A stretch of DNA of 43,260 bases from Pilimelia sp. (GCA_035553735.1 DATMJT010000312.1:1-43260); one strand, 5' to 3'. Positions 2,613 to 6,522 are shown, counted from the first letter of the stretch. Notes: generated by a model from the sequence alone, not told the origin. Numbers and translations: made by a program.

Positions 2613-4742
2613 ATGGGCATGACCGTCGTGCTCGCCGACACCCTGCACCGTGCGCTCGCCAACCTCGACGGATCCGCGCGGCGCCGGATCGTCGATTTCC
2701 TGATCAAACTGCAGACCGAGCCGCACTCCTCCGGGGTGCGGCTCAAGCCGATCAGGAACGCCCGCGACTCCCGGGTCCGCGTCGCCCGGGTCACCGATGA
2801 CCTGCGGGCGGTCCTCGTGCACGTCGGAGCGGAAACCTACGTCGTGCAGACCGTGTTGCCGCACGACGCCGCCTACCGCCACGCCGAGCAGCTGAGCTGC
2901 ACGGTCAACGCGGTCACCGGCGCGGTGGAGATGCTGGAGACCGTGCGCATCGAGCAGAAGGTCGATGCGGTGGTGGCCGAGGCGCCCACCACCGCGGTAC
3001 GGCTGTTCGCCCAGGTTTCCGACCGCGACTTCGACCGCCTCGGCATCCCCGCGATCGTGGTGCCGGCCCTGCGGCACGTCACCGACGAGGCGACCCTGCT
3101 GGACCTGGTCGAGCCACTGCCCGCCCTGCAACAGGACATCCTGCTGTCGTTGGTGGACCGCACACCCGACGAGGTCTACGCCGCGATCGTCGCGCCCGCC
3201 GCCGACTCGGGGCCGGTACCGGCCGATGTCGCCGACGCGCTCCGCCGGCCGGCCAACCAGGCGGCATACCTGGTGGTCACCGACGCCGCCGAGCTCGCCG
3301 ACGCACTCGCCTGGCCGATGGACCGTTGGCGCACCTACCTGCACCCCACCCAGCGGAGCCTGGCCTACCCCACCAAGCCCTACTCCGGGCCGGTCCGAGT
3401 CACGGGTGGACCCGGTACGGGCAAGACGGTCATCGCGGTACACCGCGCCAAGGCGTTGGCCGACGCCGCATCGCCGGGCGAGCGGGTGCTCGTGACGACG
3501 TTCGGCGCCACCCTGGCCCGTACCCTGCGTGACCTGCTCTGCCGCCTGGCCGGCGAGGCGCTCCTCGACCGGGTGGACGTGCTCACCACCGACCAACTCG
3601 CCCGCCGGCTGGTCGAGCAGTCCGGGGCAACGGTGCGCCCGCTCGCCGATGACGCCTGCCTGGGCGCGCTGACCGCCCATCTGGCACAGACCGGCAGCGA
3701 GCTGGACGCCACGCTGGTCAAGGACGAGTGGGAGCGGGTCATTCTCGACCAGGGCCTGACCACCGAGGCGGAGTACCTGAGTGCCGTGCGGCGTGGCCGG
3801 TTCCGTCCCCTGGCGACCGCGCAGAAGAAGGCGGTGTGGGCGGCGGTGCACAGCTTCACCGCCAGCCTGGCGAGGCAAGGCACGAGCACCTTCCCGCAGA
3901 TCACCGCCGCCGCGACCGGGATCGTCGCGGCGTGGACCACGCCGCCGTACCGGCACGTGGTGGTGGACGAGGCGCAGGACATGACCCCGGTCCAGTGGCG
4001 GCTGTTGCGCGCCGTGGCTCCGATCGCACCTGACGACCTGTTCCTGGTCGGCGACGCCCACCAGCGGATCTACGCACGGGCCGCGGCCCTGAGCCATCAG
4101 GGCATCCACACCCGTGGCCGCTCCCGGCGACTGACCATCAGCTACCGCACCACCCGGGAGATCCTGCGTGCGGGCATCGCCCTGCTCAGGGGCCATCACT
4201 ATGACGACCTGGACGTCGGCACCGACACCCTGGACGGATACCGTTCGCTGATGCACGGCCCGGCCCCGCGAGTGTCCGGGCATTCGTCATCCGCCGCGGA
4301 ACTCGTCGGGCTGGCCAAGTCAGTGATCACCTGGCACGACGCGGGCGTGCCGTGGGAGGAGATCGCGGTAGGGGTCCGGACCAGAGGGCTGGCGAGCCGG
4401 ACCGCCGAGGAGCTGGCCGGTCAGGGCATACCTGTGGTGGTGGTCTCCGGTGACAGCGTTCCGCCTGTCGGCCGCGCTCACGTGATGACGCTGCACCGGC
4501 TCAAGGGCCTGGAGTACCGGTGCGTGGCCGTGGCCGGCCTGCGGGAGGGTGCTGTGCCGCCAGCGAGTGCGCTCAACGGTGCCGGCGACGACCAACCGGC
4601 GCGTCGCGCCGTCCTGGAGCGGGAGCGCTCACTGGTGTTCGTGGCCTGCACCCGGGCCCGGGAGGCGCTGGCCGTCTCCTGGCATCACGCGCCCAGTCCG
4701 ATCATCGCGCCGCTGATCGTCGACGCACGGACCCGCCCGTGA
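2613..4742 (+). CDS. SF1 UvrD/Rep-like helicase with an N-terminal RelE/ParE-fold domain
   Basis: Walker A GGPGTGKT; motif II VVDEAQD; motif III LVGDAHQRIY; TISYRTT; VMTLHRLKGLEYRCV; LVFVACTRAREAL. The N-terminal ~90 aa (RRRIVDFLIKLQTEP...VRVARVTDDLRAVLVHVGAETYVVQTVLPHDAAY) aligns by eye to the RelE/ParE pattern. GGGGAGG lies 10 nt upstream of ATG 2613. Alternative starts are TTG 2589 and ATG 2619. Confidence 0.8.
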   Translation: MGMTVVLADTLHRALANLDGSARRRIVDFLIKLQTEPHSSGVRLKPIRNARDSRVRVARVTDDLRAVLVHVGAETYVVQTVLPHDAAYRHAEQLSCTVNAVTGAVEMLETVRIEQKVDAVVAEAPTTAVRLFAQVSDRDFDRLGIPAIVVPALRHVTDEATLLDLVEPLPALQQDILLSLVDRTPDEVYAAIVAPAADSGPVPADVADALRRPANQAAYLVVTDAAELADALAWPMDRWRTYLHPTQRSLAYPTKPYSGPVRVTGGPGTGKTVIAVHRAKALADAASPGERVLVTTFGATLARTLRDLLCRLAGEALLDRVDVLTTDQLARRLVEQSGATVRPLADDACLGALTAHLAQTGSELDATLVKDEWERVILDQGLTTEAEYLSAVRRGRFRPLATAQKKAVWAAVHSFTASLARQGTSTFPQITAAATGIVAAWTTPPYRHVVVDEAQDMTPVQWRLLRAVAPIAPDDLFLVGDAHQRIYARAAALSHQGIHTRGRSRRLTISYRTTREILRAGIALLRGHHYDDLDVGTDTLDGYRSLMHGPAPRVSGHSSSAAELVGLAKSVITWHDAGVPWEEIAVGVRTRGLASRTAEELAGQGIPVVVVSGDSVPPVGRAHVMTLHRLKGLEYRCVAVAGLREGAVPPASALNGAGDDQPARRAVLERERSLVFVACTRAREALAVSWHHAPSPIIAPLIVDARTRP

Positions 4743-4752
4743 TCGGAGCTTC

Positions 4753-6522
4753 GTGACCGCATTGCACGTACGCCAGGTGGCCGCCGCGATCGAACGGGAC
4801 CTCGCCGGGGAACTCGACCTCTCCGACGTACGCTCTCAAGATCAGCGTAACGCTCTGCTCAGTCGTGGGCTGGCTGCCCTGGCTGTGCGGATGCTGACCG
4901 GCCGGGACCCGGCCGCCGCCGCGGTCACCGTCGTGGACGGCTTCGGAGATCGTGGCATCGATGCCATCTGCGTCGAGGAGTCCCCACAACGGATCATCCT
5001 GGTGCAGTCGAAGTGGCACCACCATGGCGGTCAGGCCAGCATCGCCCTCGGAGACGCCCACAAGTTCATCGAAGGGCTCAAGGCGCTGACCGATGAGCGG
5101 TTCGACCGGTTCAACGCCAAGATGCAGCCCTTCGCGCCCCAGGTGTCGGCGGCGCTGCGAGACGCCCGGGTACGGATCACGCTGGTGGTGGTGTCGACCG
5201 GCGGCTCCCGCCTCGGCCGTGAAGTCCAGCAGGCGTTCGACGATGTCCTTCGTGAGATGAACGAACCCGGCGAGATCATCGAGCTGAGAGTGCTGGGCCT
5301 GGCCGAGGTCCATCGTTTCCTCGCGGAGGACGTGGCCGGCGGCAAGGTCGATCTCGACGTGGTGCTGGAGAACTGGGGACTCCTGGCCGAGCCGTACCAG
5401 GCGTTCTACGGGACCGCGTCGGCCAGCCAGATCGCCGCCTGGCACGCCGCGCACGGCGACCGGCTCTTCGACGGCAACATCCGTCGTGCCCTCGGCGCGA
5501 CCGCCGTGAACCGAACGCTCGTGGAGACCCTCAAGACGAACGGCGAGCGCTTCTGGTACTTCAACAACGGCATCACGGTGCTCTGCGAGAGCATCCGAAA
5601 AACCGGGGTCAGCGCGGCCAACCGGACCTTCGGCCAGTTCGCGCTGTCCGGAGTCACTGTCGTCAACGGCGCACAGACCGTTGCCGGCATCGCCGAGGCG
5701 CACCAACTCGACCCGGACGCCGTGGAACGGGCCCAGGTGTGGGTGCGGCTGATCTCGCTGACCGACTGCCCACCGGACTTCGGCGTCCAGGTCACCAGGG
5801 CCACCAACACCCAGAACACCGTGCAGGCCCGCGACTTCGTGGCCCTCGACAACCTGCAGACCCGGCTGCGGCAGGACTTCGCGTTGAGCCTGGGAAAGCT
5901 GTACGTCATCAAGCGCGGCGAGCAGGAACCCGAACGGGACGACGGCTGCTCGGTCGTCGACGCGGCCGATGCCCTCGCCTGCGCGTACCACGATCCCGCG
6001 TTCGCGGTGATCGCCAAGGGCAACCGAGGTCAGCTCCTGGAGACCACCGACACCTACTACAAGCGGATCTTCCGGCGGGACCTCACCGCGCAGGACGTGT
6101 GGAACGCGGTGCAGGTCCTGCGCGCGGTCGACGCGGAGCTGGAGCGCCGGCAGCGCGGCCTCACCGGCCGCGAACGTGCGGTGGCGAAGCAGGGCGACCG
6201 CCTCGTCGCGCACCTTGTCTTCGCCGAGCTACGCCGTGCCGGCGCTCCGCCGTCAGGGGACTGGAGCCAGGCGCTGGCGGCGGTGCCGACCGCGGTGGAC
6301 AGCGTGCTGGCGCACCTCATCCGCTACGTCGAGCGTTGCTTCGGCGACAACTACGTGACCAGCCTGTTCAAGAACGCCACGAAGTGCCGACAGCTTGCCA
6401 CGCTGGTTCAGGCGGAGCTACTCACCGCCGCGACGGCGGCGGATCGCCCCCATCCTCGTCAAGACGTAGCTGACGGGGACGGTCGTCCCGGCGCTGCTCC
6501 TCGGCATGCCGAGCGTGGTTGA
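4753..6522 (+). CDS. AIPR (abortive infection phage resistance) family protein
   Basis: 589 aa. Motifs FDGNIRRALG...VN, WYFNNGITVLCE and VVNGAQT are characteristic of AIPR. The N-terminus has a D...E..QSK nuclease-like motif. GGAG lies 4 nt before GTG 4753, only 10 nt after the helicase stop. Confidence 0.75.
   Translation: MTALHVRQVAAAIERDLAGELDLSDVRSQDQRNALLSRGLAALAVRMLTGRDPAAAAVTVVDGFGDRGIDAICVEESPQRIILVQSKWHHHGGQASIALGDAHKFIEGLKALTDERFDRFNAKMQPFAPQVSAALRDARVRITLVVVSTGGSRLGREVQQAFDDVLREMNEPGEIIELRVLGLAEVHRFLAEDVAGGKVDLDVVLENWGLLAEPYQAFYGTASASQIAAWHAAHGDRLFDGNIRRALGATAVNRTLVETLKTNGERFWYFNNGITVLCESIRKTGVSAANRTFGQFALSGVTVVNGAQTVAGIAEAHQLDPDAVERAQVWVRLISLTDCPPDFGVQVTRATNTQNTVQARDFVALDNLQTRLRQDFALSLGKLYVIKRGEQEPERDDGCSVVDAADALACAYHDPAFAVIAKGNRGQLLETTDTYYKRIFRRDLTAQDVWNAVQVLRAVDAELERRQRGLTGRERAVAKQGDRLVAHLVFAELRRAGAPPSGDWSQALAAVPTAVDSVLAHLIRYVERCFGDNYVTSLFKNATKCRQLATLVQAELLTAATAADRPHPRQDVADGDGRPGAAPRHAERG

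Follow-up and report, generated by a model that had tools for sequence, protein, structure and literature searches.

Class I DISARM, as described by Ofir et al. (2018), comprises five genes (drmD, drmMI, drmA, drmB and drmC) and contains neither a superfamily 1 (SF1) helicase nor an AIPR gene. ARMADA type II, known from E. coli NCTC 12900 and EDL933, consists of ArmA (SNF2), ArmB (PglX-like methyltransferase), ArmC (YprA-like helicase) and ArmD; in E. coli all four genes are needed for defence against phage HK022, the ArmD substitution K266A abolishes protection, and the defence is non-abortive (Bell et al., bioRxiv 10.1101/2025.09.15.676423). The need for all four genes has been confirmed in enterohaemorrhagic E. 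coli (EHEC) EDL933, and the same report lists ArmD as a component that ARMADA II has beyond DISARM I (mBio 2026, PMC13463889). AIPR/AbiU1 genes are commonly encoded in restriction-modification (R-M) operons (Iyer et al. 2008; Makarova et al. 2012), and in the literature on the family we found no AIPR subfamily with a demonstrated biochemical mechanism. Here we describe a 43,260-nucleotide stretch of DNA from Pilimelia sp. (GCA_035553735.1 DATMJT010000312.1:1-43260; the whole stretch is called the window below), in which positions 2,613 to 6,522 encode a 709-residue UvrD-like SF1 helicase and a 589-residue AIPR protein nested among DISARM genes. An earlier reading of the sequence alone had proposed that these two genes form an undescribed, self-contained defence module. 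Our analysis points instead to a class I DISARM variant that carries an ArmD-like helicase and a variable terminal slot, filled by AIPR as an add-on of one sublineage, and we consider this interpretation probable.

The window reads drmB, drmC, the helicase gene and the AIPR gene in this order on the plus strand, facing a convergent drmMI on the minus strand (Table 1). The DISARM genes were recognised by curated models: drmB by NCBIfam DrmB_fam (654 bits, cut-off 240), Pfam MZB (7e-12) and PADLOC DrmB (5e-68); drmC by NCBIfam DISARM_DrmC_I (219 bits, cut-off 133), PADLOC DrmC (1.6e-86) and Pfam PLDc_2; and drmMI by PADLOC DrmMI (1574 bits over its full length) together with Pfam Eco57I, MmeI_Mtase and MmeI_TRD. 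These matches bear out the position that the sequence-only reading had given the pair, between drmC and a convergent methylase, and its statements about the genes themselves also stood. Both are of defence type. The first encodes a UvrD-like SF1 helicase whose motifs could be located by position, and the RelE fold attributed to it was recovered with AlphaFold2 and Foldseek as matches to RelE-type toxins. That it is not DrmD was upheld by true SNF2 drmD genes in related loci. The second gene follows after a 10-nucleotide gap and encodes an AIPR protein; the GGAG ribosome-binding site assigned to it is present at 4745-4748, with the correction that this box lies merely 4 nucleotides from the GTG start, which is a short spacing.

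By homology and predicted fold, the helicase is a member of the ArmD family of ARMADA type II. In BLASTP, the helicase and ArmD of E. coli EDL933 (WP_000218177.1) aligned at 33% identity (E 8e-113; residues 5-698 versus 8-701), and an Acinetobacter relative recovered in the helicase scan was 45% identical to ArmD. There were 1133 homologues at E<=1e-10, among which full-length proteins that include the N-terminal region are abundant; 26 sequences of the family were aligned (alignment A1). Pfam placed UvrD-helicase at residues 254-488 (1.6e-20) and UvrD_C at residues 623-692, with a further match to AAA_19, and PADLOC matched the core to GajB (2e-24). The motifs are GGPGTGKT (265-272), DEAQD (452-456), GDAHQRIY (480-487), SYRTT (510-514) and VACTRAR (677-683). 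A RelE-like N-terminus, a GajB-like core with intact Walker A and motif II, and end-to-end homology, by which we judged membership of the ArmD family, were all found. The analogy with ArmD makes a requirement for ATP binding, through K271, probable.

No Pfam family matched the N-terminal 250 residues of the helicase, and the linker within them gave no Pfam match even at E<=10. The AlphaFold2 model of residues 1-118 had a predicted local distance difference test (pLDDT) score of 84.9, and its top 34 Foldseek matches in the PDB were all RelE, YoeB, YafQ or ParE toxins, the best being 2khe (E 1.2e-5; template-modelling (TM) scores 0.62/0.80). A profile search against PDB sequences ranked RelE3 (3bpq) first, at E 0.066, and this is the template also cited for ArmD by Bell et al. 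(bioRxiv 10.1101/2025.09.15.676423). Residues G41, L44, R54, R65, H84, D85, A87, N99, T102 and E106 are invariant in alignment A1. The invariance of R54, R65, H84 and D85 indicates that the RelE-like domain is under constraint, and from these residues we would argue that it is functional. In the helicases of two loci linked to a kinase and GmrSD (L170 and L171, below), EHRSAVY replaces the PHD(D/A)AY motif of this domain. Canonical RelE/YoeB toxins typically end in H-R-x-x-x-Y, and EHRSAVY, which is closer to that ending, suggests a subfamily-specific chemistry in the RelE-like domain.

The AIPR protein matched Pfam AIPR (PF10592) at residues 239-482 (4.7e-35, 122 bits, cut-off 25) and PADLOC AbiU (5.5e-28). 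Its N-terminal domain gave no Pfam match at E<=10, and a profile search of the protein against PDB sequences returned nothing useful. In the AlphaFold2 model (pLDDT 84.8), the segment D62/D66/D70...Q85-S-K87 contains two consecutive predicted β-strands, residues 71-75 and 80-87. This D...QxK motif resembles those of PD-(D/E/Q)xK nucleases, a tentative fold assignment for which Foldseek returned a weak match to MspJI (probability 0.66). The last 25 residues of the protein are unconserved and predicted to be disordered, and its homologues end at ~553-574 residues. A kinship with GmrSD or a ParB-like NTPase had been suspected because VNGAQT resembles DGQQR and because GmrSD fills the same slot in L170 and L171. 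The hhalign comparison with a GmrSD alignment gave E 0.92 and the Foldseek matches were weak (ParB-N 5k5d at E 0.1, and MspJI as above), and kinship with GmrSD or with ParB-like NTPases was retained as a lead only.

We found the pair in six loci of a single actinobacterial clade: the window, L081/L169, L082, L083, L084/L168 and L085, with helicases 61-73% identical to that of the window. In the sister loci the genes stand in the order drmA-drmB-drmC-helicase-AIPR, with drmD and drmMI upstream wherever the flank is readable, and the window shows this order from drmB onward. The array reads drmD-drmMI-drmA-drmB-drmC-helicase-AIPR-transposase in L169/L081 (ENA metagenome) and drmD-drmMI-(transposase)-drmA-drmB-drmC-helicase-AIPR in L168/L084 (Natronosporangium hydrolyticum CP070499.1). 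The remaining loci come from JGI metagenomes: L085 reads drmMI-drmA-drmB-drmC-helicase-AIPR; L083 repeats this order and adds another drmMI-like gene, convergent like the drmMI of the window; and L082 reads drmA-drmB-(degraded drmC)-helicase-AIPR. The closest homologues of the helicase and of AIPR share contigs, and across the clade DrmB, DrmC, helicase and AIPR show broadly parallel declines in identity to the window, which is consistent with an array that was inherited, or travelled, as one unit. The helicase and AIPR genes are separated by 10 nucleotides in four loci and by 36 nucleotides in L081, and overlap by 4 nucleotides in L084. The clade boundary is sharp: AIPR accompanies helicases of at least 61% identity, and beyond it the closest AIPR relative (55%, L086) and the closest helicase relative (48%, L173) each lack the partner. 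Judged from these relatives, the ancestral order would be drmD-drmMI-drmA-drmB-drmC-(ArmD-like helicase)-AIPR.

Traces of mobility and erosion are visible in the sister loci. In N. hydrolyticum an inserted Transposase_31 gene separates drmMI from drmA (L168:14125-15082), an rve/Mu-type transposase lies directly after AIPR in L081 (L081:14350-15987), and drmC is cut down to a 60-residue fragment in L082, where helicase and AIPR are intact (L082:5497-6161). L083 has two DrmMI-like methyltransferases, one co-directional upstream of drmA and one convergent after AIPR (L083:1-1347 and L083:11686-15672). The convergent copy is 69% identical to the drmMI of the window and, by analogy, the window may have a second drmMI copy upstream of its edge.

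The nearest outgroup places the helicase in DISARM without AIPR. In L173, whose helicase is 48% identical to that of the window, the order is drmA-drmB-drmC-helicase-drmD-drmMI, and the SNF2 gene scores 1334 bits against PADLOC DrmD; the helicase is thus embedded in a class I DISARM operon that has no AIPR gene. Both drmA and drmD, which would lie beyond the upstream edge of the window, were found in the sister loci L168, L169 and L173. The presence of drmD together with the helicase in these three loci ruled out the idea that the helicase replaces DrmD in a DrmD-less DISARM. In L170 (Actinoplanes sp. CA-030573) and L171 the order is drmA-B-C-Ser/Thr kinase-(ArmD-like helicase)-small open reading frame (ORF)-GmrSD, facing a convergent drmMI that is 67-70% identical to that of the window. 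This layout matches that of the window, with GmrSD at the AIPR position. L172 reads kinase-(RecD-like helicase)-(ArmD-like helicase)-drmD, again facing a convergent drmMI.

Neighbourhoods were compared more widely with a genome scan using the helicase-family alignment, of which the best 80 of more than 300 confirmed matches were kept, and a metagenome scan using the AIPR alignment, of which the best 80 of more than 500 were kept and in which many contigs are short. Helicase neighbours were assessed by ORF clustering and tblastn on the best 80 loci, which come from Actinomycetota, Pseudomonadota, Bacillota and one archaeon. With the AIPR of the window as tblastn query, none of the 80 helicase loci contained AIPR. 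Conversely, neither the helicase nor any DISARM gene was found in the best 80 AIPR loci (34-55% identity; in 34 the upstream sequence reaches 2.2 kb or more, long enough to reveal a helicase), among which several AIPR relatives sit in hsdM-hsdS-AIPR-hsdR arrays. The co-occurrence test, which had been set in advance, therefore came out negative, and the stand-alone two-gene reading fails with it: the pair is not co-conserved outside DISARM, drmA, drmB and drmC (in the window, whose edge cuts drmB, the latter two) lie directly upstream of it at every locus, and the helicase belongs to a family made known in 2025-2026. The sequence-only reading had also left a choice between an independent system and an accessory part of DISARM. 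The first of these falls with the failed co-occurrence, and the evidence favours the second.

What recurs around the helicase is a YprA-type gene (ArmC, DruE or DrmAB type), which lies immediately upstream on the same strand in 37 of the 80 loci and within 10 kb in 45. The commonest such partner is a protein of ~2100 residues with DEAD, Helicase_C and MZB/DUF1998 domains, usually preceded by a large PglX/DrmMI-like methyltransferase. Loci with this methylase and the 2100-residue protein were considered as Druantia or Hma, and PADLOC calls the large protein DruE-like, but gene order and the literature identify them as ARMADA type II. The gene that follows the helicase varies among the 80 loci: GmrSD, an OLD/GajA-like nuclease, a McrB-like ATPase, SNF2, TIR/SEFIR, PIN-TPR-GreABC, a protein of ~600 residues with a sigma-70 region 4 domain, and ordinary metabolic genes. 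L013 also carries GmrSD there. The slot 3′ of the helicase is therefore variable, and what recurs is the link to a YprA-type core.

Some of these helicase neighbourhoods form patterns of their own. In Actinomadura sp. DC4 (L014:10001-14016), an OLD-family ATPase-TOPRIM protein starts 15 nucleotides after an ArmD-like RelE-UvrD helicase, matches PADLOC Old (2e-38) and GajA (2e-21), and has no YprA-type gene within 10 kb; by sequence the two make a Gabija-like pair whose helicase is of the ArmD type. In Actinomycetota, the immediate neighbour of an ArmD-like helicase is repeatedly a Ser/Thr kinase that has TPR repeats (PADLOC PD-T4-6, mad6-like; L006, L008, L013, L017, L019, L026, L027, L033, L077 and L170-L172). 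Kinase matches occur in 14 of the 80 helicase loci, often with an N6-methyltransferase, which gives them a MADS-like flavour, and we found no description in the literature of this kinase association alongside ArmD. A further array, in Streptomyces (L018, L020, L022-L025 and L028), consists of McrB (AAA_5 and DUF4357), McrC, an ArmD-like helicase and a convergent helix-turn-helix N6 methyltransferase, with drmAB-like or DruE-like genes also nearby in L028 and L018. It is probably the McrBC and DISARM-like association announced as forthcoming by Bell et al. 2024.

Set beside ARMADA II, the helicase has the same end-to-end organisation as ArmD, with a RelE-like domain, a linker and a GajB-like UvrD core in a protein of ~705 residues, and with the Walker A lysine and DEAQD at nearly the same positions. 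It also occupies a comparable place, since the gene for ArmD follows one for a YprA-family helicase, and their operon also encodes an SNF2 helicase and a PglX-like methyltransferase. The partners differ. ARMADA type II has the order armA-armB-armC-armD with a fused ArmC of ~2100 residues that carries Vsr and EEP domains, whereas the window and its sisters have split drmA and drmB followed by a phospholipase D (PLD)-family drmC, and in the window locus the helicase gene is followed by AIPR. By this gene content the locus belongs to DISARM, not to ARMADA II, and a helicase of this family within it blurs the use of ArmD as a distinction between ARMADA II and DISARM I. From class I DISARM, whose models are passed by the drmB, drmC and drmMI of the window and whose drmD and drmA are present in sister loci, the lineage departs in having one or two extra genes after drmC and, in the window and L083, a convergent drmMI or second copy of it.

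Gabija resembles the pair in that the helicase core is GajB-like and a nuclease-type gene adjoins it, but GajB has no RelE-like N-terminal domain and the helicase family of the window is tied to YprA-type systems. There was no OLD or TOPRIM match beside the helicase, where the neighbours are drmC and AIPR. AbiU1/AIPR genes of R-M operons share with the window gene the AIPR domain and the place at the edge of a methylation-based defence operon, where relatives lie between hsdS and hsdR; here the host system is DISARM and not type I or III R-M. MzaE of MZA is another AIPR-family protein in a multigene defence system, but the window protein scored 43 bits against NCBIfam MzaE, for which the cut-off is 1050, and no mzaA-D genes were found in the window. 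Type IV restriction genes embedded in BREX, such as BrxU/GmrSD, offer a parallel for a second defence gene nested at the end of a methylation-based system, although the AIPR here has no detectable relation to GmrSD. McrBC likewise occurs with DISARM-like cassettes (Bell et al. 2024). In the searchable literature we found no mention of AIPR paired with a UvrD or ArmD helicase, nor of ArmD inside DISARM. This agrees with the sequence-only reading, which knew of no named system combining AIPR with a UvrD-type helicase, and the hybrid is a new composition of known kinds rather than a new class of system.

We thus favour a class I DISARM extended by an ArmD-like helicase, which from gene content would be a six-gene system in L173 and a seven-gene system, with AIPR, in the clade of the window. 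The data show homology, domain folds, gene order and its distribution; the division of labour within such a system, and each biochemical step in it, we infer from homology and gene order. The methyltransferase would mark host DNA, and DrmAB, with DrmD, would engage unmodified invading DNA. On the model of ArmD, the helicase probably works alongside the DrmAB motor on this unmethylated DNA, as an auxiliary translocase or unwinding motor that would use ATP through the Walker A lysine K271, and its RelE-like domain would be either an RNase or a docking domain. AIPR would be a gene of Abi type, associated with R-M, that a single sublineage acquired at the end of its operon. Its most likely role is that of a second-line AbiU1-type effector, as AIPR genes are thought to act inside type I and III R-M operons, and it would probably be a nuclease through its N-terminal D...QxK motif. 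Several points weigh against this interpretation. The completeness of the DISARM locus is read from relatives, with drmA and drmD outside the window. The helicase and AIPR are tightly linked and stay together down to ~61% identity, as might equally be expected of a functional pair. For ~35 of the 80 helicase relatives no YprA-type gene lies within 10 kb, and in one of these an OLD/GajA-like nuclease follows (L014), so that the helicase family can work in other partnerships.

The tight linkage could be explained by an integrated seven-component system, in which AIPR is an effector dedicated to the ArmD-like helicase and the two form a sensor-effector pair that still depends on DISARM. The helicase would sense or process invading nucleic acid and then activate or load the AIPR nuclease. 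The close spacing or overlap of the two genes in all six clade loci fits this scheme, as does the broadly parallel fall of their identities, and GmrSD (L170, L171 and L013) or OLD (L014) in the same slot suggests a logic of a helicase plus an interchangeable nuclease. Nevertheless, E. coli ARMADA II needs ArmD yet has no such gene after it, the L173 helicase stands inside DISARM without a terminal nuclease, the genes after the helicase include non-defence genes, and relatives of AIPR work in R-M settings where this helicase is absent. We therefore regard such an integrated system as unlikely. Greater autonomy still would belong to a self-contained helicase-AIPR system with Gabija-like logic that landed in or beside a DISARM island. 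The 10-nucleotide gap with a ribosome-binding site for each gene, the GajB-like core and the lack of any paper found in the searchable literature that pairs AIPR with a UvrD-type helicase would be expected of such a system. It is very unlikely, because the pair was never seen without genes of the drmA/B/C set immediately upstream (6/6 loci) and was found elsewhere in neither set of 80 loci, because the nearest outgroup has the helicase, without AIPR, between drmC and drmD, and because in E. coli a four-gene system cannot do without its member of this helicase family.

One or both genes might also be decaying passengers without function, in keeping with the transposases that interrupt or flank sister loci, the degraded drmC of L082, the 101-nucleotide overlap of the AIPR 3′ end with drmMI and the unconserved, disordered AIPR tail. 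Against this, both ORFs are intact with high third-position guanine-plus-cytosine (GC) content, every helicase motif and invariant AIPR residue is retained, and both proteins are full-length across at least six loci, which makes decay extremely improbable.

The window and its relatives place ArmD-like helicases within bona fide class I DISARM operons, 3′ of drmC and in some cases with drmD on the other side, so that ArmD is not specific to ARMADA II. Members of the family also adjoin McrBC-methylase and kinase-methylase modules, which makes the helicase look like a recurring, portable accessory in methylation-based defence and adds weight to an evolutionary connection among DISARM, ARMADA and Druantia. 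A bolder generalisation, which we think unlikely, is that ArmD-like RelE-UvrD helicases are general adaptor motors. Through them a DNA-sensing core of YprA, McrBC or methylase-kinase type would be joined to an exchangeable effector encoded directly 3′ of the helicase, which would be AIPR in this locus and, in others, GmrSD, an OLD nuclease or a kinase. If so, the helicase and AIPR would be a sensor-effector unit with a helicase-activated AIPR, and this would give a first mechanistic handle on the AIPR/AbiU1 family. The seven-gene locus of N. hydrolyticum, which spans about 2,403,400-2,422,200 of CP070499.1 in a sequenced isolate, is a compact test bed for the contribution of ArmD to a YprA-type system and could show whether AIPR acts alone or through the helicase.

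The window has a base composition of ~72% GC, and third-position GC is 0.91 in drmB, 0.90 in drmC, 0.90 in the helicase gene, 0.86 in the AIPR gene and 0.85 in drmMI. Values of 0.85-0.91 in all five indicate real genes and not chance ORFs of GC-rich DNA. The grouping of drmB, drmC and helicase apart from AIPR and drmMI weakly suggests that AIPR and this drmMI copy arrived later. The helicase ORF spans 2589-4742 (plus strand), and the ATG at 2613 is backed as the start by the GGGAGG box and by homologues that open with MGMT(I/V)VLAD. For drmMI, the database gene call of 1338 residues makes 10438 the likely start. The 3′ ends of AIPR (plus) and drmMI (minus) overlap by 101 nucleotides, 6422-6522, and L083 has a like convergent arrangement with an overlap of 37 nucleotides; the overlap may be the scar of a rearrangement that turned drmMI convergent. 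A scan of 1-11200 detected nothing that resembled a promoter and a single terminator-like site, which lies within AIPR on the minus strand; shuffled sequence gave more. Beyond drmMI, 10493-13158 contains no SNF2 drmD, the next genes encoding a YCII-domain protein and then an extracytoplasmic function (ECF) sigma factor with DUF6596, so that drmD, if it belongs to this locus, lies upstream of drmA and outside the window.

Table 1. Genes, domains and motifs of the Pilimelia sp. DISARM locus, numbered from the first nucleotide of the window
Feature	Position	Strand	Basis and remarks
drmB	1..1788	+	5′ end cut by window edge; DUF1998/MZB subunit, split YprA-type helicase of class I DISARM
drmC	1785..2546	+	PLD-family nuclease; start overlaps drmB stop by 4 nucleotides
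GGGAGG ribosome-binding site	2597..2602	+	10 nucleotides 5′ of helicase ATG; read from sequence
ArmD-family helicase, 709 residues	2613..4742	+	BLASTP to ArmD; homologue set
RelE-like domain, residues 1-118	2613..2966	+	AlphaFold2, Foldseek, profile search
PHDAAY motif of RelE-like domain	2859-2876	+	Sequence
Linker, residues 119-250	2967..3362	+	Conserved within family in alignment A1; without recognisable domain
UvrD/GajB-like SF1 core	3363..4742	+	Pfam UvrD-helicase, AAA_19, UvrD_C; PADLOC GajB
Walker A GGPGTGKT	3405-3428	+	K271, equivalent to ArmD K266
Motif II DEAQD	3966-3980	+	D452, aligned with ArmD D454
AIPR (AbiU1-like) protein, 589 residues	4753..6522	+	GTG 4753 to TGA 6522; Pfam AIPR, PADLOC AbiU
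Candidate nuclease motif, AIPR N-terminal domain	4936..5016	+	D62, D66, D70, then Q85-S-K87; all invariant in alignment A2
Invariant FWYFNNGIT	5551-5577	+	Alignment A2
Invariant VNGAQTV	5662-5682	+	Alignment A2
drmMI, MmeI/Eco57I-type N6-adenine methyltransferase	6422..10492	-	Convergent; 1356-codon ORF; PADLOC, Pfam

Further along the window, 16299-20454 on the minus strand holds three genes, which encode a 672-residue protein with no Pfam or PADLOC match, a 384-residue protein of the PNP_UDP_1 phosphorylase superfamily and a NUDIX-NrtR regulator. PADLOC relates the phosphorylase-type protein to 'Effector PN-superfamily' (1e-20) and to the candidate PDC-M60C (8e-13), and from these matches the block could be a second defence-type or nucleotide-signalling module.

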